Part shown: piece after piece, positions 8,122 through 25,071 of the stretch
Numbering within the stretch: position 1 is the stretch's first letter
Layout of the letters: each line of letters starts with the position of its first letter
Source of the DNA: a virus
Lineage: Duplodnaviria > Heunggongvirae > Uroviricota > Caudoviricetes
Strand: one strand, 5' to 3'
IMG/VR virus record: IMGVR_UViG_3300028833_000001
Coordinates: 127,171 to 191,170 of that record
DNA length: 64,000 nucleotides
Notes under the pieces: model-generated
What the model saw: only the letters and a program-made list of their open reading frames with translations
What the model was told of the DNA's origin: nothing
Database searches by the model: none
Translations under genes and position numbers: made by a program

Positions 8122-8442
8122 TTATAAGTTAATTACAATTTGGTTGTCTTCCATAGGGATAGTGAACAACAAGTTATCACCATCATAGAAACCGTATCCA
8201 TCGATAAGGCTATTATATTGGTCGTTTTTAATAGCCTTCACTTTGATGCCGTTGCTGAACAACAGTTGCATAAATTCATCAGTGAATTGGCTGCAATCGG
8301 TCTTGATAGACATTTCATTTGATTCTCTGAATGCCACCACCTCATCCCCTCTATCATCAACCAAAATAAGGTCGTGAAAATCGCGTTCAAATTTGCAGTT
8401 GTTTGTTTTTATGAAATCCAAAAAAGCGTAAATAAAATACAT
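8122..8442 (-). CDS. hypothetical acidic protein
   Basis: 106-aa ORF. Confidence 0.45.
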   Translation of the reverse strand: MYFIYAFLDFIKTNNCKFERDFHDLILVDDRGDEVVAFRESNEMSIKTDCSQFTDEFMQLLFSNGIKVKAIKNDQYNSLIDGYGFYDGDNLLFTIPMEDNQIVINL

Positions 8443-8461
8443 AATCTTAAAATTTTATTGG

Positions 8462-8968
8462 TTATTTATTAAGTTCGTGAAAAATTGCCGACAGCATATC
8501 AATACTTAAATTAGCAATTGGCTCACTTGTGGTGTATTCAGTACCATCTTCGCCATAGTATCGTACTGACACGCAATATTGATAGTCCTGCCAATACACA
8601 CAATCGTAGTGGTTTCCGTATTCCGATATGGAAATGTCAATGCTATCCTCTCCAACTTTGCTTTTGAGTGCATCGTTGATGATGCTCACAATTGTGAACA
8701 TATTGGCTCTTATGTTGATGTGGGTATTGGCAAACAACGTTTCATACGTTACTCTGCACTCCCAACAATTTTCCAACACATCCTCATCAATTTCATCATA
8801 AGTTTCTTTGAACTCAACTCCGTTGATATAACGGATAACATATTCATCGGTGAATGAGCCGTTTTGGATTTCAAATACGTCACCATTCCATACATCAGCG
8901 GCAAATTGAACATCTCCGTTCTTCTCCACCTCATCGTGGATAACTTTGATTAATTCTTCTTTTGTCAT
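8462..8968 (-). CDS. hypothetical acidic protein
   Basis: 168-aa ORF. The motif at 9002-9018 lies 34 nt upstream. Confidence 0.5.
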   Translation of the reverse strand: MTKEELIKVIHDEVEKNGDVQFAADVWNGDVFEIQNGSFTDEYVIRYINGVEFKETYDEIDEDVLENCWECRVTYETLFANTHINIRANMFTIVSIINDALKSKVGEDSIDISISEYGNHYDCVYWQDYQYCVSVRYYGEDGTEYTTSEPIANLSIDMLSAIFHELNK

Positions 8969-9001
8969 AATTGAAAATCTTAATTTGTTGTTTGCTATAC
9001 C

Positions 9002-9018
9002 TGCAATTATCGTGCCAA
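9002..9018 (-). promoter_or_regulatory. sigma-54-type -24/-12 promoter motif
   Basis: TTGGCACGATAATTGCA, 34 nt upstream of the ATG at 8968. Confidence 0.5.
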
Positions 9019-9021
9019 AAA

Positions 9022-9720
9022 TTAAAACCTACACCATAAGAGACCTTGCACAATTCCATCTTCTGCACCGATGATATATTGAGGTTTATTGATTTTCATA
9101 AAAGAAGCCACAATGTTTTGATAGCGACAAAATTCCAAATCATTATCTCTCAAATCACTAACATCTTTGAGACCCAAGACATCAACATACAGATAACCTT
9201 TAACTTCAACGCAGGATGGATTCTCCAAAGTTTCAAGGTCAATTGGTTCACCGAATAGTTTGTCTATATCCAAAAGGTCGTTATAGGTTAAATCCATTTG
9301 TGATTTCAGTCCATTCTTGGTTGCAAATTTCACAATTTCTTTATAGTTATCAATATTCTCATTGAAATCATTGTAACGTGACGAAACAATTTCCCAAATG
9401 TCACACACATCGTCAAAAATCAATCTATAACTCGCCACTCTATCCTCATTTTCAACCTCAACATAAAATTCGTTATCATCTTTGAAGGTTTTGATTTGCT
9501 TTACTTCTTCACACATTGACGAGGCATATTCAACGTGATTACCGCCATCGTATGCGATATATAAACCATCGTCATACCGCTTGGTTGTGAGATTGATTGT
9601 ACCACCCATTTCTTTAATCATTGTGACAATATCTGAAACAATGTCACATCTCAATGCTAATGTTTTGGAATGATATTCCTCTAAACGAGACTTAATGTCT
9701 TTGTTATTGATTGCCGCCAT
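9022..9720 (-). CDS. hypothetical protein, paralog of 11557..11901 in its C-terminal domain
   Basis: LENPSCVEV...IIGAEDGIVQGLLWCRF compares with LENPTCITT...LIGAENGICKGIMYCVW. Confidence 0.5.
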   Translation of the reverse strand: MAAINNKDIKSRLEEYHSKTLALRCDIVSDIVTMIKEMGGTINLTTKRYDDGLYIAYDGGNHVEYASSMCEEVKQIKTFKDDNEFYVEVENEDRVASYRLIFDDVCDIWEIVSSRYNDFNENIDNYKEIVKFATKNGLKSQMDLTYNDLLDIDKLFGEPIDLETLENPSCVEVKGYLYVDVLGLKDVSDLRDNDLEFCRYQNIVASFMKINKPQYIIGAEDGIVQGLLWCRF

Positions 9721-9777
9721 AATTCTTAATTTTAATTTTATATAAAAATAAAAAGTGTTGTGTTATGTGACATTTTG

Positions 9778-10074
9778 TCAGTTACACCTTGCCAATCTAA
9801 TGACACTATCTTCATAGACGTCAATGATTTCCCAATCCTCATTGTTCATCGTGTCACGCAGAACTGTGTCGGTGGAGATTAGATAGAAGAATATCACTTC
9901 ATCAAAGGTATTGTCACCTGCCAATTTGTCATATTCTTCTTCCGTGCAATAACACATTGTGACACGTTCAGTCTTTCCGTTGTCCTTGAATTTGATTTCA
10001 CAATCAAATGTGAAAGGTGTTGTCGGGGAAGAGATAAGGACATCAGCTAATTTGGTTAAAATTTCTCTATTCAT
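9778..10074 (-). CDS. hypothetical acidic protein
   Basis: 98-aa ORF. Confidence 0.4.
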   Translation of the reverse strand: MNREILTKLADVLISSPTTPFTFDCEIKFKDNGKTERVTMCYCTEEEYDKLAGDNTFDEVIFFYLISTDTVLRDTMNNEDWEIIDVYEDSVIRLARCN

Positions 10075-10086
10075 TGTTTATGGGGT

Positions 10087-10626
10087 TTATTGGTGATTAA
10101 AATTGATGATTTCCTGCGTGTAATCTTCGGCAATTTTGGAAAGTTTGAAATAATCTTCCCACACGTCATCCTCAAAGCTTAACCCATTTACTACACAAGT
10201 TTTGCAGTATTGGGTATCAATGTATTTGACGTGAATGTACTCATCGTGTGTTTCAATTTTGATATTGATGGAATAGCCTTCATTATTGGCTTTATCAACG
10301 ATATTGGCAATTTCATCGCAATCATAAAAACATACATAGTCATTATCGCCAAACAATTCGATTGAGCGCATAAACTCGGTAAATTCTTCGCACGGCATAT
10401 CGCACAATTTTTGAAGAGCATCAACCTGCTCTTCGTTTTTCTGATTGGCAGGTTTTTCTTCACCAACATATTTGAATGACGCACTATAATACTCTCCAAC
10501 GCAGTTTATCTCATCAGCTAATCCATCATAAATAACGTCAAGCGACCCATTATCAATTAGACGTTCTGTATCCGCCAAAGCCTCAGTTACGCGATAATCT
10601 TCCGCTTGAATTTCAACTTTAATCAT
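10087..10626 (-). CDS. hypothetical acidic protein
   Basis: 179-aa ORF with the promoter motif upstream. Confidence 0.5.
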   Translation of the reverse strand: MIKVEIQAEDYRVTEALADTERLIDNGSLDVIYDGLADEINCVGEYYSASFKYVGEEKPANQKNEEQVDALQKLCDMPCEEFTEFMRSIELFGDNDYVCFYDCDEIANIVDKANNEGYSINIKIETHDEYIHVKYIDTQYCKTCVVNGLSFEDDVWEDYFKLSKIAEDYTQEIINFNHQ

Positions 10627-10671
10627 AATTCTAAATTTTAATTGTTACTATTAATTTGTCATTAATCTATA

Positions 10672-10688
10672 TGCAATTATCGTGCCAA
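10672..10688 (-). promoter_or_regulatory. sigma-54-type -24/-12 promoter motif
   Basis: TTGGCACGATAATTGCA, 46 nt upstream of the ATG at 10626. Confidence 0.5.
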
Positions 10689-10691
10689 ACC

Positions 10692-11462
10692 TCACTCTTC
10701 ATACGAAATCACACGAGGCAGTCCGTTCCTTGAAAGATTCTCATAAATTTGAGTTTCATCGGGATTTATATCCTCCGCAAGTGTCAACGCTTCTTCTTCT
10801 GTATGCGCCTCCACGACAAATTCTTCTGTTGTGGTATATTCAACTTTGATTGTGTATTTCTTTTTGGGGGTTTCCAACTCTTCGAAATACTCATTAACTT
10901 CTTCCCGCGACATTTCCGTAAACCACGGCTCAATCTCCTTGTAATTGGTAGGGATGGTATCGGAGACCTCAATCAAATCACCTTTCCACGTTCCAACCAT
11001 TTCCATAAGTGTACCATTGTAGTCTCCACCACCACAACCATTTCCATCAGCAGTAAGAATTGGAAGAGGATGAGCAATTCCGCCCCAACCTTTCATATCG
11101 GGAATTGTCTGCTTTTTGAGGTCAAACCATTCCTTTTTGTCGTGATTGATATAGATGGTATTGTCATCAAGCGCGCGCTTCACAATAGAGATTTCGATTT
11201 CATCTAATGGGTCAACTTTTTCCGCCTTATAGGTCAAATCATAGTAATTATCATTACCGATAACGGCATCGCCATAATCACCTGCCCAAACAAGTCTTTT
11301 AGGGCATTCAATCATTTTGTAGGTAACATTCATCACGAACTTATTACCAATATACGAATGCTCCATTAATTTAGAACCATTATTTGTGTCCCAAGAATCA
11401 AAATATTCTTTTACATTGTCTTTTTTTTCTGTGATGAAACACGCTTTATAATATTGTCCCAT
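10692..11462 (-). CDS. hypothetical protein
   Basis: 256-aa ORF with the promoter motif upstream. Confidence 0.5.
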   Translation of the reverse strand: MGQYYKACFITEKKDNVKEYFDSWDTNNGSKLMEHSYIGNKFVMNVTYKMIECPKRLVWAGDYGDAVIGNDNYYDLTYKAEKVDPLDEIEISIVKRALDDNTIYINHDKKEWFDLKKQTIPDMKGWGGIAHPLPILTADGNGCGGGDYNGTLMEMVGTWKGDLIEVSDTIPTNYKEIEPWFTEMSREEVNEYFEELETPKKKYTIKVEYTTTEEFVVEAHTEEEALTLAEDINPDETQIYENLSRNGLPRVISYEE

Positions 11463-11538
11463 AATTTTAATTTAATTTGTTAATACTAATTTTAATTGTT
11501 TTTAATGAAAGTTGGGTACGCAAACGCGTACCCTATAT

Positions 11539-11555
11539 ACGCAATAATCGTGCCA
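11539..11555 (-). promoter_or_regulatory. sigma-54-type promoter motif followed by the palindromic hairpin
   Basis: TTGGCACGATTATTGCG, with the palindrome GGGTACGCGTTTGCGTACCC immediately downstream (11513-11532). Lies 77 nt upstream of the ATG at 11462. Confidence 0.45.
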
Positions 11556-11556
11556 A

Positions 11557-11901
11557 TTATGCTGACCAAACGCAATACATAATTCCTTTGCAGATTCCGT
11601 TTTCAGCACCAATTAGAAAATCGGGATGGGAAATAGCACCAAGACCAAGAACAATGTCAGAGTATTCGTAACGCTCATCGTAGGTCAATGGAGAGACATA
11701 TTGCGGCAACTCAACAATAATGTATTGGTCTGTTGTGATGCAGGTTGGGTTTTCAAGTGTGTAGCAATCTATGGCTTCGTAACCAATGTCAAATATGAAA
11801 TCAACTTCTTTCCATTCGGAAGATGTTTCGGTTTTGAGATTATTTTTTTCGCAGAAGGCAATGATTTTGTCTTTTACTTCTTGGAATTTTTCACTTGTCA
11901 T
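11557..11901 (-). CDS. hypothetical protein, paralog of the 9022..9720 C-terminal domain
   Basis: Shared C-terminal motif. The start was set to an internal Met to avoid overlap with 11921..12280. Confidence 0.4.
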   Translation of the reverse strand: MTSEKFQEVKDKIIAFCEKNNLKTETSSEWKEVDFIFDIGYEAIDCYTLENPTCITTDQYIIVELPQYVSPLTYDERYEYSDIVLGLGAISHPDFLIGAENGICKGIMYCVWSA

Positions 11902-11920
11902 ATTGTCTATGGATTTAAGG

Positions 11921-12280
11921 TTAGTAAGCGTATTCGGGGATTTTTTCAACGTAATTGTCAATGACTTCTTGAATGTTGTCGCAATAGCATTCATCAACGC
12001 GGTGTTTTAGGTTTCCGTGTGTGGAGACAAACTCCACCTCATAGTAATCCATATAGTTATAAATGACGTGGACGTACCCTTTGAATTTCATACCATTGAC
12101 CTTGAAACGAAGGCAGGGATTGCCTTTTTCGGTCACGGCATACACAAATCCGTGCGCTCCCCAAGACCAATAAACGTGGACATTTGGGTATTTGATTTGG
12201 CTCATAATCGTTGAGGTGATAGTCTTTGCGTCCTCAACTTGACGCTTGGTCTTCGGTGCTACTAACTTGGTTGCTTCCAT
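11921..12280 (-). CDS. hypothetical protein
   Basis: 119-aa ORF with the promoter motif 42 nt upstream. Confidence 0.5.
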   Translation of the reverse strand: MEATKLVAPKTKRQVEDAKTITSTIMSQIKYPNVHVYWSWGAHGFVYAVTEKGNPCLRFKVNGMKFKGYVHVIYNYMDYYEVEFVSTHGNLKHRVDECYCDNIQEVIDNYVEKIPEYAY

Positions 12281-12321
12281 TTCAATAAATTTTAATCGGT
12301 GAATAAATACGTTGTGCTATA

Positions 12322-12338
12322 TGCAAAAAGTGTGCCAA
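12322..12338 (-). promoter_or_regulatory. sigma-54-type -24/-12 promoter motif
   Basis: TTGGCACACTTTTTGCA, preceded by the upstream GTTGTGCTATA element. Confidence 0.5.
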
Positions 12339-12339
12339 A

Positions 12340-12702
12340 CTATTTCACAATAATCATTTCCTCAACGAACTCTAATCCATCAAGTTCTGCGTGTGCAACA
12401 TCGTATGTTTCACCACTATTATAGCTGCAAACTTCAAATCTTAATGTGCCGTCTTGGTCAATGTAAGCACGTTCCAAAGCCACTTCTTCAACCTCATCAA
12501 ATGCGGTGCAGATAACTCTCGGATAAAAGCAACCGTCTTTATCGTTAAAGACATATTCCTTATTAGGCAGGTTTTCAATTTTCGCCACAATATCTTCGCA
12601 GGTCATAGTGTGTGCAGCCACTTTCAAATCAATTGCAGAAATATTGTTCTCTCTTACGAACTTCACAATGGCATCGTTGCTCATTAAAATATCGGTTGTC
12701 AT
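12340..12702 (-). CDS. hypothetical acidic protein
   Basis: 120-aa ORF. Confidence 0.5.
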   Translation of the reverse strand: MTTDILMSNDAIVKFVRENNISAIDLKVAAHTMTCEDIVAKIENLPNKEYVFNDKDGCFYPRVICTAFDEVEEVALERAYIDQDGTLRFEVCSYNSGETYDVAHAELDGLEFVEEMIIVK

Positions 12703-12751
12703 AATCTATAAATTTTAATTGTGAATACTAAATTTGTTTGTACAGCATATA

Positions 12752-12768
12752 TACAAATACCGTGCCAA
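12752..12768 (-). promoter_or_regulatory. sigma-54-type -24/-12 promoter motif
   Basis: TTGGCACGGTATTTGTA, 50 nt upstream of the ATG at 12702. Confidence 0.45.
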
Positions 12769-12844
12769 ACTTATTATATATGGTTTTTATTGATATGACA
12801 TAATGGCACGACAAAATGGCAGACTGACATTTTGGCATATAAAA

Positions 12845-13040
12845 AAATAAAGGGTGTGACGGAGTATACTCTCCTACTCATTTTAAGTGTGACGGAGTAT
12901 ACTCTCCTATCCATTTTACACACATTTAATCCAATGTTCAGCCCTTTTCGGAGCGACCCGCTCCTTACTGCCCCTATGTCCTATGCTATTATGGCGGTTT
13001 CATTGCTGATGATTTAAGTTAGACAATCAGTTTACAATTC
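12845..13040 (-). ncRNA. candidate small non-coding RNA downstream of a perfect-consensus promoter; contains a 2 x 33-bp tandem repeat and a GGAGCG..CGCTCC hairpin, and ends in a T7 run
   Basis: There is no minus-strand ORF of 60 aa or more between the promoter at 13047-13063 and the next promoter at 12752. The repeats GTGTGACGGAGTATACTCTCCTA(C/T)(T/C)CATTTTA lie at 12854-12886 and 12887-12918. Confidence 0.35.
12854..12918. repeat. 33-bp direct tandem repeat, 2 copies, each with an internal GGAG..CTCC hairpin
   Basis: Seen directly in the sequence. Confidence 0.8.
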
Positions 13041-13046
13041 TCTATA

Positions 13047-13063
13047 TGCAAAAAGCGTGCCAA
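13047..13063 (-). promoter_or_regulatory. sigma-54-type promoter motif (perfect consensus) with no protein gene downstream
   Basis: TTGGCACGCTTTTTGCA, part of a ~65-bp cassette repeated at 13955-14030 and 18940-19015. Confidence 0.5.
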
Positions 13064-13107
13064 ACCCATATTAGGAATGGCACGCTGACAACAATTAAAA
13101 TTAAGAT

Positions 13108-13923
13108 TTATTCTTCATACGGGCATTCAGTATCATCCTGCACATTAACGCAGGTGTCAAAACAAACACCATTGGTTTCACCTCTCTTGAATTTATTGAT
13201 TGCCTCTTCAATGGCGGCATCATCATCTCCATCTGCATCAATAACAACTCTTGTTGTCAGTTCAAATGTGACAAGTTTGGCAGTCTTTGGTGACTTTTTG
13301 TCAAAGGTGATGATTGTAGGCTTGTTTTCCTTTTCACACATATCTATTGTGGCATATAACTTGCCGAGGCTATCTTCATAATCACTTCCCTTATACATTT
13401 TAATCTTGTTATCAATGAGGTCAAATTTGAATTTCCAATGAATCTCATATCGTTTTGTCTGTGTGCCATCCCAATAATAACTGATTGGCTTCAAACGGAA
13501 ATGAGTGGTGTTGACATAACTATTAACACGTACATACTCAAACTCCAATGTAGTGCAAGAATGGGTAAAATTCAAATCATCATAGGATATATCGGCAATA
13601 CAACCGATATTAAGTATGTTTTCATTATATCCGTGTATAAACAATGAATATTCTTCATCGTTTCTTAATGCGAGGTTTAATGTCTTATATAGACCACCTT
13701 TGTATTCATTTAAGAGTTTGTATGACGATACCTCGCCAATGCCAGCGATTTCAAGCATAAAACAAATTCCACAACCACGAACATAATCTAATTTTCTTGT
13801 TGATTTGTTAAAGTAAAAATAGCAAGGTCTTTCGTTGAGTTCAACAATTCTTGCTTCACGGACTTCTCTGCCGTTCTCACCTTTGATGTTTGCGTAAAGA
13901 ATAATGTCATTGATGTTTGTCAT
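13108..13923 (-). CDS. hypothetical protein
   Basis: 271-aa ORF. Confidence 0.55.
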   Translation of the reverse strand: MTNINDIILYANIKGENGREVREARIVELNERPCYFYFNKSTRKLDYVRGCGICFMLEIAGIGEVSSYKLLNEYKGGLYKTLNLALRNDEEYSLFIHGYNENILNIGCIADISYDDLNFTHSCTTLEFEYVRVNSYVNTTHFRLKPISYYWDGTQTKRYEIHWKFKFDLIDNKIKMYKGSDYEDSLGKLYATIDMCEKENKPTIITFDKKSPKTAKLVTFELTTRVVIDADGDDDAAIEEAINKFKRGETNGVCFDTCVNVQDDTECPYEE

Positions 13924-13969
13924 ACTTTTTGAATTTTAATTGTAAATATTAATTTGTCACTACCATATA

Positions 13970-13986
13970 TACAAAAAGCGTGCCAA
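13970..13986 (-). promoter_or_regulatory. sigma-54-type -24/-12 promoter motif
   Basis: TTGGCACGCTTTTTGTA, 47 nt upstream of the ATG at 13923. Confidence 0.5.
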
Positions 13987-14027
13987 ACTTATTATGAGTG
14001 ACACGCTGACAACAATTAAAATTAAGA

Positions 14028-18922: not shown

Positions 18923-18956
18923 ACCATAAATTTTAATTGGTTAGACGCACCATATA

Positions 18957-18973
18957 TACAAAAAGCGTGCCAA
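18957..18973 (-). promoter_or_regulatory. sigma-54-type -24/-12 promoter motif within a repeated cassette
   Basis: TTGGCACGCTTTTTGTA. The flanking AATTGGTTAGACGC and CACGCTGACAACAATTAAAATTAAGATT are shared with other copies. Confidence 0.5.
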
Positions 18974-19013
18974 ACTTATAAAGCAGGCACGCTGACAACA
19001 ATTAAAATTAAGA

Positions 19014-19418: not shown

Positions 19419-19429
19419 AAGTTTTTTGA

Positions 19430-19852
19430 TTATGAAACTTTTATGCTATTCAAGTCAATATCCTTTACATATTCCCAATTATCAAAATAATTTGTTTGAT
19501 TACTATAAATCATAGTGTCACTATAACTGCTATATGGTGACATATTGTCATTTAGAAAGACATATTGGCAGTATTCACAATGTCCATCCCTTGATGGTTT
19601 TATGTCAAGGATTGCCACATAATAACCATAGTCGTGAATAGGGGAAAATGGGTCATTATTATCACCATAAAATCGTCTTTTTCCATATATTCCACCAATA
19701 TTCAATGATGACTTGACTTTTTTCTCTTTTTGTATCTTCTTATTGCTCCTAATATTATCAATGATGTGGCGGAAAAATTTGAAAAATGTGATTGAAAACA
19801 CACTAATGAAGATTGTGAATGAAATAAATGATGGTATATTAAAGGTAATCAT
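19430..19852 (-). CDS. membrane-anchored protein, tandem paralog of 19014..19418
   Basis: IGGIYG...YYVAILDIKPSRDGHCEYCQY...DIDLNSIKVS. The start was set to the internal Met to avoid overlap. Confidence 0.5.
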   Translation of the reverse strand: MITFNIPSFISFTIFISVFSITFFKFFRHIIDNIRSNKKIQKEKKVKSSLNIGGIYGKRRFYGDNNDPFSPIHDYGYYVAILDIKPSRDGHCEYCQYVFLNDNMSPYSSYSDTMIYSNQTNYFDNWEYVKDIDLNSIKVS

Positions 19853-19863
19853 AATTTTAATTT

Positions 19864-20760
19864 TTATTCTTGAACGTAAATCTTTCTTATTCTTCCCTCC
19901 CACACATCAAGACGATAGGAATCCACAAAACTTACTTGGTATACGTCATCGGAACACCGATATGTGACGTTTTCGCCAACGTATTGACTATTGAATGCCT
20001 CAACGGCTTCTTCATATTTTTTCTTCATCGCAGCGGCAGCGGAAGCGTGAGACTTATAAACAGTTGTATCCTCTTCAAGACCAAATCTACTGCCATCCTC
20101 CCAAACCGATGTTGCGACATAGACATAATCTAAATTGAATACCACTTTACGTTGTTCCCTATTGATTTCACCCTTAACATCCTCAATGGCATCTTCTTCA
20201 CCATTGATTACAGCAAGAATTAATGACAATCCACGATTGTCCTTCAAATAATCGGCAACGATTTGGAAATATTTGTTTTGGAAATCATTGTCATAACCGC
20301 TAACAATTTTTGCTGCGGCACGTTTTGCAAACCTTTCCCTCAATTCGGTATCAACGAAATGCTCAATTTCTTCATCATAGAACGGCAAATCATTTTCGGT
20401 GTAACATAATAGTTCATACATAATCAGTTCACGATGCTCTTCGCAAGCACCCGAAAACATCATCACCTTATCAATGATTCTCTCCACTTGCATTTGGTAG
20501 GTGTCCATTGATGTTTGTTTGATTTCATACTCAACCCTATTACCATCGGAAATGGTGGCATAATCATTACCTTTCCAAACATCATACCCGTTGAAAACGA
20601 AATGCTCGCCTTTGCTTGCAAGTATATCTTTTTTAATTTTAATTTCACTTGCAACTTCTGCGAACATAACTTCTTGTGCTTGCGTAAAAGTTGGGAATGA
20701 CCAAACAAGCGTATCGTTATGCAGTTGAGTTCTGATGACATTAAAAATTTTAATCTTCAT
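19864..20760 (-). CDS. hypothetical protein
   Basis: 298-aa ORF with the promoter motif 52 nt upstream. Confidence 0.55.
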   Translation of the reverse strand: MKIKIFNVIRTQLHNDTLVWSFPTFTQAQEVMFAEVASEIKIKKDILASKGEHFVFNGYDVWKGNDYATISDGNRVEYEIKQTSMDTYQMQVERIIDKVMMFSGACEEHRELIMYELLCYTENDLPFYDEEIEHFVDTELRERFAKRAAAKIVSGYDNDFQNKYFQIVADYLKDNRGLSLILAVINGEEDAIEDVKGEINREQRKVVFNLDYVYVATSVWEDGSRFGLEEDTTVYKSHASAAAAMKKKYEEAVEAFNSQYVGENVTYRCSDDVYQVSFVDSYRLDVWEGRIRKIYVQE

Positions 20761-20811
20761 AATCTTATATTTTTAATTGTTGATGATTTGAATTACTTGT
20801 GTTGTGCTATA

Positions 20812-20828
20812 TGCAATTATTGTGCCAA
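20812..20828 (-). promoter_or_regulatory. sigma-54-type -24/-12 promoter motif
   Basis: TTGGCACAATAATTGCA with the upstream GTTGTGCTATA element. Confidence 0.5.
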
Positions 20829-20829
20829 A

Positions 20830-21057
20830 TTAAAAATAGTAACTCACCTCATCCTCATTAAAAGATGTTCCGTTTTCGTTGTTGTAGTCTTCAATTGCAA
20901 GTGATGGGATGTAGGATTCACCTGCAAGTTCAAACTTGCCATTCTTAATGAGTTCCTCCAAAACTGAATTGTCATCGGCAGATAACAATTTTTTGATTGT
21001 ATCTTCATCTGCCTTTATGTCAACACCTACTCTCATCCAAATTTTTTGTTCTTGCAT
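20830..21057 (-). CDS. hypothetical acidic protein
   Basis: 75-aa ORF. Confidence 0.4.
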   Translation of the reverse strand: MQEQKIWMRVGVDIKADEDTIKKLLSADDNSVLEELIKNGKFELAGESYIPSLAIEDYNNENGTSFNEDEVSYYF

Positions 21058-21104
21058 AATACTGAATTTTAATTGTGAATATTAATTTTAAGTGTTGTGC
21101 TATA

Positions 21105-21121
21105 TGCAATTATTGTGCCAA
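21105..21121 (-). promoter_or_regulatory. sigma-54-type -24/-12 promoter motif
   Basis: TTGGCACAATAATTGCA, 48 nt upstream of the ATG at 21057. Confidence 0.5.
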
Positions 21122-21271
21122 CTTACCTGCGCCTCCAATATAATTTTCCGATGAGGTGTTTTCTATTTGATGGCTCAATGATAAACCATTTCCACCATTC
21201 AAGTCTTCCGATATTGATATACTCCCCTACAATCAGTTGAGGGCGGCTCGCCATAGCGATTATGTCATCCA

Positions 21272-21481
21272 TTATTCGTTACCACCATTAAGTTCAAGGT
21301 AAATGTCAGTACACATATCGTCAAAATTGGTTGTGCCGTCATTATAATCATCAAGGACTTCAATGATGGTTTCGTAGTCGCTATCAGCGTCAAGGTTGTC
21401 GGAAATGAGGTTGTTAATTCTAACAATGTCATCTTCACCCAATTCAAGGGCGAATGAATAATCTCTAATAATTTCTTCCAT
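21272..21481 (-). CDS. small hyper-acidic protein
   Basis: 69 aa, extremely D/E-rich. Confidence 0.4.
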   Translation of the reverse strand: MEEIIRDYSFALELGEDDIVRINNLISDNLDADSDYETIIEVLDDYNDGTTNFDDMCTDIYLELNGGNE

Positions 21482-21494
21482 AATGTTATTAATT

Positions 21495-21728
21495 TTAATT
21501 AAACAAATTCATAAATCTACTTTCAAAATCTCTTAAAGTATCTTCGGCAAAATCATCCCACCAATCTTCGCGCTGGCAAGCGCGCAAATATGTAATATTT
21601 GCAACAATATTATTATACTCTTCACAAAACCGTTTTTTCTCCACATTTCGTTTTAAGTTAATGGTTGCCAATGTAATGAAGAAAATTACAATCAATGATA
21701 AGATGATGATTAAAATTATAATTGTCAT
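21495..21728 (-). CDS. small membrane protein
   Basis: N-terminal TM helix. Confidence 0.4.
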   Translation of the reverse strand: MTIIILIIILSLIVIFFITLATINLKRNVEKKRFCEEYNNIVANITYLRACQREDWWDDFAEDTLRDFESRFMNLFN

Positions 21729-21763
21729 ATTCTTATTCTTTTTGCGATATTACAAATATTAAA

Positions 21764-22012
21764 TTAATTTTCAAAATATAAAAAATTCTCAATGCCATCA
21801 ATATCCTCGCAAGAACCGAGAAATTCGTCATTCTCATATACGTTGTACCCACCAACGATGTCGGGTTCAATTGTATAATCATCCTCCCAATAATACGGCT
21901 CTACCGATAGAGTTCTATCGTCAACTTCAAAATAGACGTTGAAGCATTCGCCAACTTTCGGTTGGTATTCGTTGAGGTTTTCGGAATTGATGGTTACGAT
22001 GTTCTTACTCAT
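21764..22012 (-). CDS. small acidic protein
   Basis: 82-aa ORF with the promoter motif 38 nt upstream. Confidence 0.45.
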   Translation of the reverse strand: MSKNIVTINSENLNEYQPKVGECFNVYFEVDDRTLSVEPYYWEDDYTIEPDIVGGYNVYENDEFLGSCEDIDGIENFLYFEN

Positions 22013-22049
22013 AGTGATAAAATTTTAATTGGTTAGACGCTATCATATA

Positions 22050-22066
22050 TGCAAAAAGCGTGCCAA
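22050..22066 (-). promoter_or_regulatory. sigma-54-type -24/-12 promoter motif (perfect consensus)
   Basis: TTGGCACGCTTTTTGCA. Confidence 0.5.
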
Positions 22067-22112
22067 ACCGTTTGACACGCTTAACTGACACATTGGCATT
22101 TGATTTGTGACA

Positions 22113-22379
22113 TTATGGCATAAATGCCATAGAAATCGCTTCTTTTAACTTGTTTTGGTAGTCATCTTCGTTATCGGTGTCATATTCAAACCAACCGACA
22201 ATTTCACCATCAAAATATAGTGTTGCAGCATCTCCGTCATATTCTACTTCAACCAATCCACAGTCGGTTGTTGATAGGTCTTCAAGCGCGTCCTGCTTCT
22301 CTCCATAGACAATAATTGTGTTGTCATCAAAGCAAAGAGGCGTTTTATCTTCTTTAATGATAATGTAATCAATAACCAT
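22113..22379 (-). CDS. small acidic protein
   Basis: Start set at the internal Met (MVIDYIII...) preceded by CAATTAAAATTA. Confidence 0.4.
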   Translation of the reverse strand: MVIDYIIIKEDKTPLCFDDNTIIVYGEKQDALEDLSTTDCGLVEVEYDGDAATLYFDGEIVGWFEYDTDNEDDYQNKLKEAISMAFMP

Positions 22380-22383
22380 AATT

Positions 22384-23169
22384 TTAATTGTTTTTTGAAT
22401 ATTCTTTAATCGCTCCCTCAATCGCTTCTTTCACCTCTTCATAGGTGCAACGTACAGAAGCGTCAAACGTGTACTCCATAGCGTATTTTCCTGCGATTTG
22501 AGAGATTTTTTCATCCTCATTGGTATTGTCGGTCAATGAGGACTTAAACACCGCCAAATACTCCGTTTTTTTCTTTTCAGTAAAATCATCAATAAAATCG
22601 TAATAGTCAGTAAAGTCATCATCATCTCTTTCTTCCCACAACTTTTCCGCCTGCAATGCCCAATCTTGGATTTTACCGACAATAACATCTCTCGGAATGT
22701 CGGTTGTTGATGATATTTCCTCAAAACATTGCAGGGCAATCTCAATGCAGTTCTCCTGCACACGCAGGTTACGATAATGTGCGTCCAAATCAATCGGATT
22801 TTTGACGGGAGGAATAATGGCATCACGAACGGACTTACAAGCCTCCATATCTCCACGCATAGTGGCATAGAGCAAGTCAATCCAACTGACATTATGCAAG
22901 TCCATAAGGTTTCTTGCTTTCTCACCATCCATAAAATTGTTAAAGTCATCAATAGTTACGTTGCAATTGTCAGCACCGATTTGACGGAATGTACCCATCA
23001 AATCTTCAAAAACGAAGAGTTCTATTGACTTTTCGTATAATTCAGAATCGGAATAGTGTTCAAGTGCTTGAATCACCACTTCTTTGGTTATAGTGGTTTT
23101 AGCGTTCGGGTATCTATCTTTGAGATAGGAAATGATGACTTCTGCCATTGAATTTTTAATTTCACTCAT
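22384..23169 (-). CDS. hypothetical protein
   Basis: The first ATG at 23196 is only 10 nt from the promoter motif, so the second Met (MSEIKN...) is the likelier start. Confidence 0.5.
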   Translation of the reverse strand: MSEIKNSMAEVIISYLKDRYPNAKTTITKEVVIQALEHYSDSELYEKSIELFVFEDLMGTFRQIGADNCNVTIDDFNNFMDGEKARNLMDLHNVSWIDLLYATMRGDMEACKSVRDAIIPPVKNPIDLDAHYRNLRVQENCIEIALQCFEEISSTTDIPRDVIVGKIQDWALQAEKLWEERDDDDFTDYYDFIDDFTEKKKTEYLAVFKSSLTDNTNEDEKISQIAGKYAMEYTFDASVRCTYEEVKEAIEGAIKEYSKNN

Positions 23170-23205
23170 AATCACTAAATTTAATTGGTTAGGCATTATC
23201 CATTA

Positions 23206-23222
23206 TGCAAAAAGCGTGCCAA
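23206..23222 (-). promoter_or_regulatory. sigma-54-type -24/-12 promoter motif (perfect consensus)
   Basis: TTGGCACGCTTTTTGCA. Confidence 0.5.
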
Positions 23223-23301
23223 AAATACAAATTGTCATATAAAAAAAACCCACCATTTAGGTGGGTTACATTCATATCACACAAAACCACTCAGAGGTCT
23301 A

Positions 23302-23817
23302 TTACTTGTTGATGGTATTGACAATACCACGGATAAGACTGACAACGTTGTCACGCAAATCTGCCACGCTGTCAGTATGTAACATTTCGGCAGCCTCCAA
23401 TTCAGCTTCGCGATTATCCAATTCAGCTCCACGAGCATTCAGTTCCTCTTCACGCTCATCAAGGTCAATCTCTCGTTCGTCCAATTCAGCATCTCTAACG
23501 TTGAGGTCGTGTTCCCTACCATCAAGTTCATCTTCTCTTGCGTCAAGTTCCTCCTTGCGCTCATCATAGTTGTGACAACAAGTGTTCTCACAAACTTCAT
23601 CATCGCACTCGTCACCATCAACGGAAAGAATGTCCTTCGCCAACTTGATGTAGCGTTCAATCGAAGTGTTGTCGGTAGCAGGTGCAGATTTCGGCATAAT
23701 CGCCTTGATGACGATAGCGTCAAGCATTGAATCAAGCATCATAATGTCCGTGATGGACATATTAGCAATAGCATTCATAATTCCGTTAATAACCATCTTC
23801 TTAATGTTGTTCTTCAT
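23302..23817 (-). CDS. coiled-coil protein with tandem heptad repeats (ELDxREx) x ~7
   Basis: LDAREDELDGREHDLNVRDAELDEREIDLDEREEELNARGAELDNREAELEAAE. Confidence 0.5.
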   Translation of the reverse strand: MKNNIKKMVINGIMNAIANMSITDIMMLDSMLDAIVIKAIMPKSAPATDNTSIERYIKLAKDILSVDGDECDDEVCENTCCHNYDERKEELDAREDELDGREHDLNVRDAELDEREIDLDEREEELNARGAELDNREAELEAAEMLHTDSVADLRDNVVSLIRGIVNTINK

Positions 23818-23867
23818 ACTTTTGAAATTTTAATGTTTATAAAAAATTGTTATTGGATTTTGTTCTA

Positions 23868-23884
23868 TGCAACTATCGTGCCAA
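23868..23884 (-). promoter_or_regulatory. sigma-54-type promoter motif adjacent to the palindromic hairpin (23888-23907)
   Basis: TTGGCACGATAGTTGCA, 51 nt upstream of the ATG at 23817. Confidence 0.5.
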
Positions 23885-23915
23885 AATGGGTACGCAAATG
23901 CGTACCCTATATTTT

Positions 23916-24602
23916 TTAATATCCGTAGTTGTAAATCATATTGGAGTAATTGAAATTGACAAAGTTAATAGTATCGTCATATTCCAACTTCTCAATGAAA
24001 TCCTGCGGCTCAACTCCCTCATTGATGAAAGTGTTGATTTGCTCGCAGAAATGGATATTCTGCTCATCAACCTCTTCGGTTGTATGTGCACCAAATGAGA
24101 GGCATCTTGCCTCCGATGGATTGCTGACAAACATATAGGTAAAGAAACCACGTAGCTTGTAGCGTGTAGCGAACTCGGAGGCATAGCACCATATACCAAT
24201 AATCTCTCTATAACGCAGTAAATCCACGTTGTCGGCATCAATGATATATGGAGACATCCTGCTATAACCAACCGCAATGTCAGCGTCGAGACAATATTGA
24301 CCGCTCATATCCATACAATCACCATAAATGGCATCGTAATAGGTATCATAGTCCATAATATCGTCCAAGTCGGAATATTGATTGTTAATAACCTCAATGT
24401 CATCATCGGCACGGAAAAGACCGCTGCCAGTTCCGTGACCAAGAAATAGACACGTTTCATAGGGTCTATTGCGTAAGACCTCTTCCAATTCAGACCTCTT
24501 TGGGTTGACCAATACAATGTTGTCGGGATTGGCTGACAAATTGTCAAAGAGACGTGACATAATGTCGGTGTCGTGTTGTGTGTTAATGTGTACAGCTATC
24601 AT
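23916..24602 (-). CDS. hypothetical protein
   Basis: 228-aa ORF. Confidence 0.5.
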   Translation of the reverse strand: MIAVHINTQHDTDIMSRLFDNLSANPDNIVLVNPKRSELEEVLRNRPYETCLFLGHGTGSGLFRADDDIEVINNQYSDLDDIMDYDTYYDAIYGDCMDMSGQYCLDADIAVGYSRMSPYIIDADNVDLLRYREIIGIWCYASEFATRYKLRGFFTYMFVSNPSEARCLSFGAHTTEEVDEQNIHFCEQINTFINEGVEPQDFIEKLEYDDTINFVNFNYSNMIYNYGY

Positions 24603-24667
24603 AACTCTATCTAATGATTTTTAATATTATTATACAAACTTTTTTCTTGTCTGCCAAATATACCTTA

Positions 24668-24684
24668 TTCAAATATAGTGCCAA
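24668..24684 (-). promoter_or_regulatory. degenerate sigma-54-type motif (TGGCACT-N4-TTGAA) adjacent to the palindromic hairpin (24690-24708)
   Basis: Minus-strand TTGGCACTATATTTGAA, 66 nt upstream of the ATG at 24602. Confidence 0.3.
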
Positions 24685-24714
24685 ACTTTGGGTACGCAAG
24701 TGCGTACCTAAAAA

Positions 24715-25071
24715 TTAAAGATATTGTTCAATGCTTTCGCAAAGGCAATAAAGAGTTGGAGAGACACAGCACATACCGCCGAATATGGAATACCAACCAT
24801 CATCGTTTAGTACCTCATCATCGGTCATACCATCCAAACTTTCGTTAGAAGAAGCAGGCAGCACACACACTTCACCATCAAATAAAGCAACCGCAAGCAC
24901 TTTGTTTTCGGTGGTTGTCTCCAACGCTTCATCAAAGATGTAGCAGTAGATAGTGTCTTTGTACCAATCTTCATCGGTACGGATAAGCCCGTTGTGTTGT
25001 CTTAAAACGTCCGCCACAGCGTCATTCATACGCTTGTTGAGGGCAATTTGCTCATTAAGTAAATCAGTCAT
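24715..25071 (-). CDS. hypothetical acidic protein
   Basis: 118-aa ORF. Confidence 0.5.
   Translation of the reverse strand: MTDLLNEQIALNKRMNDAVADVLRQHNGLIRTDEDWYKDTIYCYIFDEALETTTENKVLAVALFDGEVCVLPASSNESLDGMTDDEVLNDDGWYSIFGGMCCVSPTLYCLCESIEQYL

Follow-up and report, generated by a model that had tools for sequence, protein, structure and literature searches.

Organization of the array

The DNA analysed here, a stretch of 64,000 nucleotides that we call the window, comes from a giant phage (contigs of at least 360 kb, from rumen- or gut-type metagenomes) whose host probably makes no use of Shine-Dalgarno sequences, as in Bacteroidota. According to the ORF list of the window, positions 8122–25071 are occupied by an uninterrupted series of ~35 minus-strand ORFs encoding proteins of 49–298 aa (Table 1), a broader span than the 60–190 aa reported in an initial annotation. 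The six ORFs singled out there are all present on the minus strand where it placed them, and independent gene calls on metagenome contigs with identical proteins agree, including the start of the 88-aa protein at 22379, which confirms 22113–22379.

Table 1 Features of the array and of the sigma-factor gene outside it, all on the minus strand.
Coordinates	Feature	Length (aa)	Net charge	pI	Remarks
8122..25121	Whole cassette array				~35 small ORFs, 1 non-coding unit, 17 repeated promoters
25108..25121	Promoter TGGCACGATTATTG				Block head, 50 nt before ATG of 24715–25071; six TGTCA/TGACA repeats directly upstream
24715..25071	Orphan ORF	118	−17	4.05	5% Cys; homology search negative
24670..24683	Promoter TGGCACTATATTTG				81 nt before ATG; preceded by imperfect hairpin GGTACGC-N4-GCGTACC
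23916..24602	Predicted minimal caspase/CHAT-fold (clan CD) cysteine peptidase	228	−26	4.17	
23870..23883	Promoter TGGCACGATAGTTG				66 nt before ATG; hairpin GGGTACGC-N4-GCGTACCC immediately upstream (23888–23907)
23302..23817	Acidic coiled-coil protein	171	−24	4.30	Hydrophobic N-terminus, then acidic heptad-repeat coiled coil (ELDxREx); sub-threshold coiled-coil matches only
23208..23221	Promoter TGGCACGCTTTTTG				Terminator-like hairpin + T8 just upstream (23247–23267)
22384..23169	ORF	261	about −25	4.4	ORF reaches 23196; ATG at 23169 favoured by promoter position and independent gene call
22113..22379	ORF	88		4.08	~24% D/E (24%, net −14 for 22113–22421); L009 orthologue 78% identical
22052..22065	Promoter TGGCACGCTTTTTG				53 nt before ATG; drives 3–4 genes; three TGTCA repeats upstream
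21764..22012	Ocr-like-charge-density protein	82	−17 (−0.21/residue)	4.05	24% D/E, 4% K/R
21495..21728	Membrane protein	77	−2		N-terminal transmembrane helix; not acidic soluble
21272..21481	ORF	69	−19 (−0.28/residue)		30% D/E, 3% K/R
21123..21272	Doubtful ORF	49			Basic; absent from gene calls of related 360-kb contig
21107..21120	Promoter TGGCACAATAATTG				63 nt before ATG
20830..21057	ORF	75	−10	4.15	
20814..20827	Promoter TGGCACAATAATTG				67 nt before ATG; drives 3 genes
19864..20760	ORF	298	−19	4.77	Paralogue of 14028–14885; orthologues (55–59% identity) net −20 to −31
19430..19852	Membrane protein	140			ATG from independent gene call; transmembrane segment at N-terminus; not acidic; 43% identical to its paralogue 19014–19418
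19014..19418	Membrane protein	134	−4		N-terminal transmembrane segment
18959..18972	Promoter TGGCACGCTTTTTG				50 nt before ATG
18497..18922	ORF	141	−21	4.05	
18221..18478	ORFan	85	−17 (−0.20/residue)		29% D/E; identical copy on 361,445-bp contig
17797..18177	ORF	126			phrog_10841
17557..17787	ORF	76			
17271..17555	ORF	94			
16899..17234	Basic ORF	111		~10	
16446..16865	ORF	139			
16225..16431	ORF	68		4.2	
15924..16214	ORF	96			
15616..15873	ORF	85			
15567..15580	Promoter TGGCATAGTATTTG				49 nt before ATG
14953..15531	Two-domain protein	192	−28	4.10	23% D/E
14935..14948	Promoter TGGCACATTATTTG				63 nt before ATG
14028..14885	ORF	285	−23	4.72	Paralogue of 19864–20760; orthologues (62–63% identity) net −25
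13972..13985	Promoter TGGCACGCTTTTTG				62 nt before ATG
13108..13923	ORF	271	−11	5.02	
13049..13062	Promoter TGGCACGCTTTTTG				No ORF after motif
12838..13040	Conserved non-coding unit, putative small RNA				~195 nt
12754..12767	Promoter TGGCACGGTATTTG				65 nt before ATG
12340..12702	ORF	120	−15	4.25	
12324..12337	Promoter TGGCACACTTTTTG				57 nt before ATG
11921..12280	Non-acidic ORF	119	0	6.95	Relatives 67%
11557..11997	ORF, start uncertain		−8		TTG start at 11997 overlaps upstream gene; in-frame ATG at ~11901 gives ~114 aa
11542..11555	Promoter TGGCACGATTATTG				93 nt before ATG; hairpin GGGTACGC-N4-GCGTACCC just downstream (11514–11533)
10692..11462	Most conserved cassette	256	−24	4.51	65–76% in relatives
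10674..10687	Promoter TGGCACGATAATTG				61 nt before ATG; drives 3 genes
10087..10626	Cys-rich ORF	179	−27	4.12	
9778..10074	ORF	98	−11	4.21	Orthologues (43–49% identity) net −16 and −17
9022..9720	ORF	232	−18	4.48	Orthologues 66–68% in relatives
9004..9017	Promoter TGGCACGATAATTG				49 nt before ATG
8462..8968	ORF	168	−23	4.17	20% D/E; orthologues (39–47% identity) net −21 and −25
8122..8442	ORF	106	−10	4.24	Orthologues (only 30–32% identity) net −8 and −9
5691..5704	Promoter TGGCACGGTATTTG				Outside the initially annotated range; 59 nt before sigma-factor gene
4767..5645	Phage sigma-70-family sigma factor (regions 2 and 4)				Same promoter class as acidic block

The contents of the block are mixed and include an enzyme, three membrane proteins, one basic protein (pI 10) and a non-coding unit. 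Its products are mostly clade-restricted and, because they are rich in aromatic residues and Cys, are probably folded. The longest transcription unit, ~10 genes headed by the promoter at 18959..18972, extends down to 15616 and ends in eight small genes (15616–18177) that have no internal promoter and are only mildly to moderately acidic. In the most conserved cassette (10692–11462), the N-terminal ~180 aa form a domain that is widespread in phages and has no known function (phrog_3156/35050); hypothetical proteins from Mycobacterium phages, MoMoMixon and I3 among them, are 28–30% identical to it. An additional acidic tail follows at the C-terminus. The putative small RNA, which follows the ORF-less promoter, contains TAGGAGAGTATACTCCGTCACAC twice, ends in a T-run and occurs in multiple copies in relatives, where it is 72–83% identical over its full length.

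Promoters and expression

The array holds a 23-nt promoter, aaGTTTGGCACGaTaTTTGCATATAg, in seventeen copies, each followed by a conserved AT-rich leader. The motif (TGGCACG-N4-TTGCA) is of the textbook sigma-54 type, not sigma-70, and fits the sigma-54 −24/−12 consensus. Matches to it are far in excess of expectation (24 observed, 3 expected); ~19 fall on the coding strand, where they are confined to 5.7–25.1 kb, and the distance to the start codon is mostly 49–67 nt, with few outliers. The strict motif occurs on only 7 viral contigs, and relatives have equally dense promoter arrays. Transcription units hold from 1 to ~10 genes each; with 17 motifs serving ~35 genes, the initial proposal of a separate promoter for every gene does not hold.

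Early expression of the block is suggested by one feature, the promoter type that it has in common with the sigma-factor gene. Promoters of the sigma-54 type normally require an activator, an enhancer-binding ATPase, so that an immediate-early assignment is uncertain. No such ATPase was found within the 64-kb window, so that expression could be middle or conditional in timing instead of early.

Acidity of the encoded proteins

The acidity recognized initially in this run of small proteins is real, specific to the block and evolutionarily conserved. The 35 block proteins have a median pI of 4.48, with 19.0% D+E and 9.8% K+R, and pI is below 5 in 26 and below 4.3 in 16 of them. In 43 control ORFs of at least 80 aa, taken from the same window outside the block and equal in G+C, the corresponding medians are 5.60, 14.6% and 12.5%, and 13 have a pI below 5 (Mann–Whitney p = 1.2e-5 for pI; p = 2e-8 for block acidity with a cruder control set). 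AT bias was rejected as the cause, since Lys and Arg are depleted rather than raised. Orthologues with as little as 30–45% identity are still net negative. In twelve of the 35 proteins, among them the three membrane proteins and the pI-10 protein, acidity is not pronounced (above −0.06 net charge per residue).

Sequence searches and structural models

The absence of recognizable domains noted initially holds at the sequence level. Pfam at E ≤ 0.1 returned only Gly-Ser linker artefacts and sub-threshold coiled-coil matches, NCBIfam gave no match, PADLOC no credible match, and PDB sequences no match (best E 0.06–0.1). None of the 35 proteins belongs by sequence to the Ocr or ArdA families (Pfam E ≤ 0.1; PDB sequences), and no block member matches a known anti-defence family. 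Matches in PHROGs were limited to five families, all of unknown function. The three families examined are narrow, with 23, 4 and 8 homologue clusters; the 4 belong to 18221–18478 (at least 75% identity) and the 8 to the 69-aa protein 21272–21481 (at least 68% identity), in which acidic residues occupy 11 of the 32 invariant positions.

Structure models cover two of the 35 proteins, and both are compact and globular rather than DNA-shaped, giving no support to the DNA mimicry proposed initially. The protein at 23916–24602 is predicted to be a caspase/CHAT-fold peptidase, with His56 and Cys139 invariant. Its acidic insertion of ~50 aa (residues ~65–118), which contributes −12 to the protein's net charge of −26, is modelled at low confidence and is lineage-specific, being found in only 1 of 48 other aligned family members. 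In the protein at 14953–15531, a variable, disordered Asp-rich linker (residues 70–92; 23 aa, 43% D/E, zero basic residues) connects two conserved globular domains, the C-terminal one with a pLDDT of 84–90. A fold search with this model found no significant neighbour, and its similarity to any mimic is not above noise.

Cassette shuffling

In relatives the same cassettes recur, at 30–92% identity, but their order is scrambled. Blocks of DNA homology begin 5–46 nt from a promoter in both genomes compared; those shared with the genomes L007 and L009, for example, begin 7 nt upstream of the promoter at 20814..20827 and 9 nt upstream of that at 15567..15580, respectively, in both genomes. The array also holds paralogue pairs, and relatives hold a mosaic orthologue: part of 10087–10626 and 8462–8968 both match one mosaic 198-aa protein in L009. 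Paralogy may be partial, as between the C-termini of 11557–11997 and 9022–9720.

A precedent for hyperplastic regions is provided by the PeSL cassettes of T4-type phages (PMC2839356, PMC4122927). The likeness lies in shuffled cassettes and in homology that starts at promoters, whereas stem-loops adjoin only a minority of the promoters in the array, and the analogy is incomplete. The closest architectural analogue is the host-takeover module of SPO1, which has 26 genes and includes among them an acidic DNA mimic, Gp44 (PMC6873191, PMC8208478). The data support a view of the block as a plastic, fast-turnover, promoter-defined set with the profile of phage host-takeover or accessory regions.

Function of the block

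The best reading, which we hold with moderate confidence, is that the block is a hyperplastic array of promoter-bounded host-interaction cassettes in a huge phage. By analogy and genomic style, it would be an accessory set for host takeover and counter-defence, with its genes expressed together in a single temporal class that precedes the sigma-factor-dependent genes. Most members would act stoichiometrically, by binding and blocking host proteins that carry positive charge and in many cases bind nucleic acids; negative charge would be under selection for this reason. A minority would work as enzymes that cleave host targets, or at the membrane. Cassettes would be shuffled, duplicated and replaced when the repeated promoter and leader sequences recombine with one another.

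It is also possible, though we put it forward tentatively, that one or a few members are genuine nucleic-acid mimics with new folds and that the rest are otherwise employed. Of the 116 aa of Ocr, 34 are acidic and 6 basic, and we took this charge density as our benchmark (PMC4872106). Three of the 35 proteins, 21272–21481, 21764–22012 and 18221–18478, have a comparable charge density, making DNA mimicry by this handful of members plausible on composition; the first would be the best compositional candidate. The fourth likely member is 14953–15531, for which mimicry through the Asp-rich linker is plausible. In Gp44, the segment that mimics DNA is disordered and acidic, with 67 aa and 57% D/E (PMC8208478); the linker is likewise disordered and acidic but shorter, with a lower D/E content. 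The initial annotation held that disorder would count against mimicry, an expectation that is unsound because the mimicking segment of Gp44 is itself disordered. Conservation of the charge and the presence of such proteins in the SPO1 module also favour a few mimics, while the candidate families are too small for covariation-based modelling.

We consider it rather unlikely that the acidity is a generic physicochemical adaptation, for solubility at very high expression or avoidance of non-specific DNA, RNA or ribosome binding, in proteins with assorted phage-internal roles (chaperones, scaffolds, regulators) that do not target the host. The proteins are heterogeneous, with at least one enzyme; their charge is spread across many unrelated families, and some of it lies outside the conserved cores, in linkers, insertions and tails. 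However, other genes of the genome with equal G+C are not comparably acidic, and the 69-aa family keeps its charge at specific invariant positions. For core functions internal to the phage, conservation and synteny are the rule; the block genes, by contrast, are clade-restricted, paralogised and shuffled.

More doubtful still is the proposal in its strong form, that the run is mostly a battery of Ocr/ArdA-like DNA mimics directed against R-M, BREX and other defence systems, whose surface carboxylates would imitate the DNA backbone and block DNA-binding defence enzymes. What stands of it is the host-takeover-type profile; family membership and the shapes of the two models went against it. The high, conserved negative charge with depletion of Lys and Arg, the three Ocr-like compositions, the invariant acidic positions of the 69-aa family and the Gp44-like linker free of basic residues are in its favour, and the diversity of mimic folds means that absent homology is not decisive. 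Nevertheless, charge density is far below that of Ocr in 32 of the 35 proteins, a dozen of which are not notably acidic, one modelled protein has a caspase fold with its excess charge in a low-confidence insertion, the other shows no mimic similarity above noise and has only a short linker, and the block also encodes membrane proteins, a basic protein and a non-coding unit.

That the ORFs arose by chance in AT-rich DNA, or that the region is pseudogenised, is barely credible and effectively refuted: database homologues are very few and domains absent, but the frames are tightly packed on one strand behind conserved leaders, with the 49-aa ORF at 21123–21272 the sole doubtful one, independent gene calls concur, relatives conserve the proteins, and the fold predictions came out confident.

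Conserved negative charge in a run of small genes

The minus-strand block at 8122-25071 is an unbroken run of about 35 ORFs encoding proteins of 49-298 aa. All six ORFs that the initial annotation had offered as examples of small, strongly acidic genes (8462-8968, 14953-15531, 18221-18478, 21272-21481, 21764-22012 and 22113-22379) are present at the coordinates given there. The ORF set matches independent gene calls on two metagenome contigs of 360,704 and 361,445 bp, the former being ENA ERZ27257202 k141_2937494, on which identical proteins are found, and these calls were used to correct the starts of 22384-23169, 22113-22379, 19430-19852, 16899-17234 and 15616-15873.

Comparison of the block with the rest of the window confirmed that its acidity is real and special. 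The medians for the 35 block proteins are 19.0% D+E, 9.8% K+R and pI 4.48, with pI below 5 in 26/35 and below 4.3 in 16/35. The corresponding values for a control set, comprising 43 ORFs of at least 80 aa from the rest of the window, are 14.6% D+E, 12.5% K+R and pI 5.60, with 13/43 below 5 and 4/43 below 4.3 (Mann-Whitney p=1.2e-5 for pI; p=2e-8 with a cruder control). The G+C content of the window is about 35%, and AT bias was ruled out as the source of the acidity, since Lys and Arg are depleted and the control, which has the same base composition, is less acidic. Net charge is kept in orthologues even at an identity of 30-45% (see the table), and in the 69-aa family (21272-21481) 11 of the 32 invariant positions are acidic. 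The negative charge of the block products is selected, and the block supplies about 30 orphan protein families in which it is conserved. The block is not uniform: net charge per residue is above -0.06 in 12 of the 35 proteins, and members with a membrane segment or a basic pI are included in the table. The content of aromatic residues (12%) and Cys (2.5%) suggests that the block proteins are mostly folded.

The description of these products as having no recognisable domains held at the sequence level for all 35 proteins in Pfam, NCBIfam, PADLOC, PDB and PHROGs, the first four having been searched with the proteins run as concatenates. Pfam (E<=0.1) returned only linker artefacts, namely Serglycin matches produced by the Gly-Ser linker of the concatenates, and sub-threshold coiled-coil matches (RNase_Y_N, OmpH, FlbB). 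NCBIfam gave no match and PADLOC no credible one, its '4TM effector' match straddling a concatenation junction; the best E value against all PDB chain sequences was 0.06-0.1. The few PHROGs matches were all to families of unknown function. The N-terminal ~180 residues of 10692-11462 share 28-30% identity with hypothetical proteins of Mycobacterium phages, e.g., MoMoMixon and I3. Families recovered in deep searches are narrow and lack a meaningful name: 14953-15531 has 23 clusters, 18221-18478 has 4 and 21272-21481 has 8. A beta-beta-alpha module proposed as common to the N-domain of 14953-15531, the tail of 10692-11462 and others was dropped at a profile-search E value of about 0.1-1.

Features of the block and its surroundings (window coordinates), with net charge where orthologues were compared.
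Feature	Coordinates	Strand	Promoter	Net charge	Net charge of orthologues
Sigma-70-family sigma factor, regions 2 and 4, phrog_351	4767-5645	-	5691-5704		
Acidic block protein	8122-8442	-		-10	-9 and -8
Acidic block protein	8462-8968	-		-23	-25 and -21
Acidic block protein	9778-10074	-		-11	-16 and -17
Non-coding unit, about 195 nt without an ORF	12838-13040	-	13049-13062		
Basic protein, pI about 10	16899-17234	-			
N-terminal transmembrane segment, paralogue pair	19014-19418 and 19430-19852	-			
N-terminal transmembrane segment	21495-21728	-			
TnpB/IS605 OrfB-type gene (OrfB_IS605 + Cas12f1-like TNB domain) inside the phage genome	43098-44369	+			
ClpB/ClpA-like two-ring AAA+ chaperone, full-length, 849 aa, phage-encoded	51813-54362	-			

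DNA mimicry as a possible explanation of the acidity

The initial annotation interpreted the acidic run as candidate DNA mimics, resembling Ocr and ArdA, or anti-defence genes; the observation stands, and the interpretation is supported only in part. Of the 116 residues of Ocr (T7 gp0.3), 34 are acidic and 6 basic, i.e., about 29% and 5% (PMC4872106). Ocr is an elongated homodimer that imitates bent B-DNA in dimensions and charge pattern, and it inhibits enzymes of type I R-M and BREX systems. ArdA is an extremely elongated three-domain monomer and dimer in which helical ribbons of conserved Asp/Glu mimic about 42 bp of DNA, and the elongated DNA-like dimer and helical carboxylate ribbons are defining traits of both proteins (PMC2731889). 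The block shares with them small size and very low pI, and three of its short proteins rival Ocr in composition and acidic-to-basic ratio: 21272-21481 reaches the Ocr values (30% acidic, 3% basic, -0.28 per residue), and 21764-22012 (24% and 4%, -0.21) and 18221-18478 (29% and 9%, -0.20) come close in composition; the charge density of all three is Ocr-like. Neither trait is shared by the other 32/35, and conservation of acidic positions as in Ocr and ArdA was seen in one family, that of 69 aa. In contrast, there is no sequence kinship: none of the 35 proteins has an Ocr match in Pfam at E<=0.1 or a meaningful match to a PDB chain, and none matches ArdA, including its anti-restriction motif, in Pfam, NCBIfam or PDB sequences.

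The two modelled block proteins, 14953-15531 and 23916-24602, also differ from Ocr and ArdA, in that they are predicted to form compact globular folds and not an elongated dimeric DNA-like shape; the ArdA-type architecture with Asp/Glu ribbons was not found in either. For 14953-15531 (192 aa, net charge -28), one of the examples of the initial annotation, the alignment comprises two conserved domains connected by a linker that is rich in Asp and varies in length. Its C-terminal domain was modelled with confidence (pLDDT 84-90) and its N-terminal domain only weakly, and the linker came out as disordered.

Disorder had been put forward as grounds for rejecting mimicry, a rule that is unsound because SPO1 Gp44, which also has a folded domain, mimics DNA through a disordered segment (residues 56-122; 67 aa, 57% D/E, without basic residues; PMC8208478). 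The acidic disordered stretches of the block do not match that segment in length or strength. Residues 70-92 of 14953-15531 (23 aa) have 43% D/E and no K, R or H, are largely below pLDDT 50 and vary in length among homologues. The acidic insertion of 23916-24602 has 25% D/E, and the coiled coil of 23302-23817 has 42% D/E, yet 11 basic residues. It is possible, if somewhat doubtful, that at least one block member is a strict DNA mimic, and very unlikely that mimicry describes the block as a whole. DNA mimicry is a reasonable lead for a few members.

A minimal caspase/CHAT-fold protein

The block encodes at least one protein of the caspase fold in which a dyad of the catalytic type is intact. 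The product of 23916-24602 (228 aa, net charge -26) belongs to a family of 557 representative clusters, typically of 175-190 aa and without a Pfam domain. Its model (pLDDT 87, pTM 0.81, core 96-98) has the predicted alpha/beta fold of the caspase-hemoglobinase type. Across 49 diverse family members there is no variation at His56 (in GHG, after the strand at 51-54) or Cys139 (in WC.A, after the strand at 133-137), and in the model they appear in the catalytic-type order, with His before Cys and each residue positioned at the C-terminus of a core beta-strand. In these respects the protein resembles the clan CD peptidases (CHAT, gingipains, separase, legumain, metacaspases), in which an invariant His and Cys each follow a beta-strand in the canonical order. 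Unlike characterised members of the clan, it is much smaller, with a core of about 175 aa and no accessory domains; it is phage-encoded, unlike the clan CD defence proteins, and it carries a lineage-specific acidic insertion. This insertion of about 50 residues, modelled at low confidence, accounts for 12/26 of the net charge; among the 48 other sequences in the family alignment, only one has it.

The protein had no match to curated peptidase families (Pfam CHAT, Peptidase_C14, C13, C25, etc.). Nine of 10 family members scanned against Pfam had no match and the tenth matched only in a fused GNAT domain, and the family profile had no match among PDB sequences. We therefore regard 23916-24602 as kin at the level of the fold, outside the described families. 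Given the caspase-type fold, the His/Cys pair and the location of part of the charge in an insertion, the model is best read as that of a putative enzyme rather than a mimic. The family (P0024-P0173; loci L011-L084) occurs in rumen and gut MAGs of Bacteroidales, Fibrobacter, Verrucomicrobia and Spirochaetes, and includes a member fused to a GNAT acetyltransferase. No other block genes and no promoter enrichment were found at these 74 cellular loci, so that the context offers no functional clue. The family is a widespread, previously unclassified minimal caspase/CHAT-fold family, here borne by a phage.

A sigma-54-type promoter array

The most unexpected aspect of the block is its regulation rather than its acidity: the block and the phage sigma factor both lie behind textbook sigma-54-type promoters. 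A 23-nt motif, aaGTTTGGCACGaTaTTTGCATATAg, is common to the regions upstream of the block genes, and TGGCA-N6-TTG occurs 24 times in the window compared with 3.0 expected. About 19 motif copies are on the coding strand, all within 5691-25121, and 17 promoter copies fall within the 17 kb of the block; the aaGTTTGGCACGaTaTTTGCATATAg form is absent from the window's other 39 kb. The distance from promoter to start codon is mostly 49-67 nt, with outliers of 25, 81 and 93 nt, and one copy has no following ORF. In a position weight matrix built from 22 copies, three of them intragenic matches, GG, the following C and A, and TT are present in 22/22 and the -12 G in 20/22, with fixed spacing.

The sigma-54 -24/-12 consensus is TGGCAC-N5-7-TTGCT (PMC12316311; also PMC4591121). 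The block motif matches it exactly, in the form TGGCAC-N5-TTGC(A/T), its invariant GG and GC being separated by one helical turn. Spacing misfits a sigma-70 or a Bacteroidota -33/-7 reading of the motif; the TATA that is conserved follows TTGGCA by only 11 nt, and no -10 element recurs consistently at 16-18 nt. Judging from the motif, the block promoters would be recognised by sigma-54. They resemble bacterial RpoN promoters in their canonical spacing and position upstream of genes and differ in that about 20 copies are packed into 20 kb of phage DNA. No report of sigma-54-type promoter arrays in phages was found in the literature searched. Sigma-54 promoters require both the holoenzyme containing sigma-54 and an AAA+ activator that binds enhancers (PMC4591121); if functional, those in the block would imply an enhancer-dependent phage transcription programme. 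A sigma-54 gene, a GAFTGA activator, an RpoN box or a clear distal enhancer was not found in the 64-kb window. The ClpB-like AAA+ protein was rejected as an activator, its Sigma54_activat match being a generic AAA+ cross-match (AAA_2 1e-57) without GAFTGA.

The initial annotation had described each gene as independently promoted. This is only half true: in nine units a promoter serves one gene, or just the non-coding unit, but the promoter at 18972 heads about ten genes. A aaGTTTGGCACGaTaTTTGCATATAg-type motif also precedes the gene for the phage's sigma-70-family sigma factor. Because block genes and sigma-factor gene share the motif, the temporal class of the block would lie upstream of whatever the phage sigma factor transcribes, and the placement of a sigma factor behind a sigma-54-type motif suggests a transcriptional cascade.

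TGTCA/TGACA repeats, which may be activator or operator sites, occur in six copies at ~25125-25200 (-) before the first promoter of the block, and further copies precede the promoters at 22065, 13985 and 12767. Their enrichment upstream of promoters overall is modest (18 compared with 9 expected, p~0.005).

Cassette plasticity and relation to known phage regions

The block is a promoter-defined, plastic array of cassettes. Three relatives in IMG/VR (L006, L007 and L009) hold about 20 of the 35 block families at 30-92% identity and in scrambled order, and carry 19-23 copies of the promoter motif each on the coding strand; the strict motif was found on only 7 viral contigs. In comparisons of the window with L007 or L009, many DNA homology blocks begin 5-46 nt from a promoter motif in both genomes, which is consistent with recombination at the motif. 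There are three paralogue pairs among the block genes, and a relative has a mosaic orthologue. The latter, a 198-aa protein of L009 (10970-11566), aligns at its N-terminus with part of 10087-10626 and further along with part of 8462-8968, which indicates domain-level mosaicism between cassettes. The more distant relative L010 (IMGVR_UViG_3300037249_000678) has four homologues of block proteins (three at 59-65% identity, the fourth at 40%) and only one copy of the motif; evidently, cassettes can exist under another type of promoter.

The acidic-ORFan block itself belongs to an already known sort of phage region, of which it is a variant. The hyperplastic regions of T4-type phages are shaped by modular shuffling mediated by promoter-early stem-loops, or PeSLs (PMC2839356, Arbiol et al. 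2010; PMC4122927, Comeau et al. 2014). The block resembles them in several ways: (i) Small, mostly orphan genes are clustered between conserved regions. (ii) A short promoter-containing motif is repeated before many small variable genes. (iii) Gene content and order vary among relatives, with exchange points at the motif. Unlike in T4-type PeSL regions, the promoter is of the sigma-54 type (-24/-12) and not a sigma-70 early promoter, and the phage is huge (at least 360 kb) and unrelated. Compared with the composite terminator stem-loop of a PeSL, hairpins adjoin only 4-5 of 17 promoters here. To our knowledge, a marked and conserved acidity has not been described for PeSL regions.

In SPO1, the host-takeover temporal class also yields the phage sigma factor gp28; by analogy, the block would be expressed in a class that likewise yields a phage sigma factor. 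The SPO1 host-takeover module comprises 26 early genes (PMC6873191), among whose products Gp44, an acidic mimic of DNA, inhibits RNA polymerase (PMC8208478) and Gp46 inhibits HU (PMC8892312). Both the module and the block consist of a few dozen small contiguous genes with several dedicated promoters, and many products of each are acidic and clade-restricted. Unlike the block promoters, SPO1 early promoters use the primary sigma factor of the host, and no homology of block proteins to any SPO1 protein was detected.

We infer that the block is the phage's host-takeover or counter-defence accessory set. Most members would bind host proteins that are basic, and that often bind nucleic acids, and would block them, and a minority would act as enzymes or at the membrane, with the repeated promoters co-regulating the set and also serving as recombination points. 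A fuller reading, which we advance tentatively and consider unlikely to hold in every part, is an accessory regulon of ~20 kb on about 20 canonical sigma-54 (-24/-12) promoters, comprising ~35 host-interaction proteins of conserved acidity, a multi-copy small RNA and the sigma-70-family sigma factor of the phage. The phage would hijack the enhancer-dependent RpoN holoenzyme of the host; an activator ATPase, encoded by the phage or captured, would be the master switch. The phage would use the promoters also as sites for shuffling cassettes by recombination, and would direct nucleic-acid mimics of new fold and a minimal caspase-like peptidase against host, possibly defence, proteins. Plastic early or accessory regions are stores of counter-defence and takeover tools in phages and thus a rich source of new inhibitors. 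Three features outside the original claim add to the interest of this one: its array of sigma-54-type promoters, the minimal caspase-like family that had not been classified, and the non-coding unit, which is conserved and multi-copy.

Leader, hairpins and a non-coding unit

Each promoter is followed by a conserved AT-rich leader, in which ATTAAAATT occurs 59 times compared with 9 expected. Most start codons in 1-25.5 kb are preceded by a ACAATTAAAATTTAGAATT-ATG leader in place of a Shine-Dalgarno sequence (e.g., 10634-10642, 12711-12719 and 15540-15548). The reverse complement of the leader, AATTTTAATTGT, recurs directly after some stop codons. A perfect hairpin, GGGTACGC-N4-GCGTACCC, is located at 7840-7859, 11514-11533 and 23888-23907 and adjoins several cassette boundaries, and an imperfect copy (GGTACGC-N4-GCGTACC) lies near 24690. 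The recurring GGGTACGC/GCGTACCC hairpin may serve as a terminator or as a site of recombination or protein binding.

Two copies of TAGGAGAGTATACTCCGTCACAC are present in the non-coding unit, which has a T-run at its end. Over its full length the unit is 72-83% conserved in relatives, where it is multi-copy, with three copies in L007 and two in L009, and one hairpin shows compensatory changes. Folding of the single sequence was not better than that of shuffled sequences (z -0.36), the covariation term from RNAalifold was weak, and Rfam gave no match. The unit may be a phage small RNA.

The phage and the surroundings of the block

The window belongs to a huge phage, represented by contigs of at least 360 kb. 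Searches of a cultured-phage collection (50,697 records) with the block and a neighbouring gene of 796 aa found no DNA or protein match, so that the phage cannot be placed among cultured phages with these queries. Phage-type functions elsewhere in the window include a collagen-repeat tail fibre, an amidase, a UvrD-like helicase and tRNA-Gly, in addition to the sigma factor, ClpB-like protein and TnpB listed in the table; tRNA-Gly was the only match in an Rfam scan of 3-29 kb. Cores resembling Shine-Dalgarno sequences precede only 2 of 50 large ORFs, a scarcity that presumably hints at a Bacteroidota-like host, and the relatives come from rumen/gut-type samples.

Strongly acidic proteins also occur outside the block. 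The product of 3921-4622 (-), located directly downstream of the sigma-factor gene and just beyond the range of the initial annotation, is among the most acidic in the window (233 aa, 26% D/E, pI 4.14); it has long poly-Asp/Glu runs and no Pfam match. Two further acidic proteins adjoin tail-fibre-like genes: 60036-61910 (+), which has no Pfam or PHROG match (624 aa, 28% D/E, pI 4.05), and 62000-62467 (+), of 155 aa and pI 4.06.
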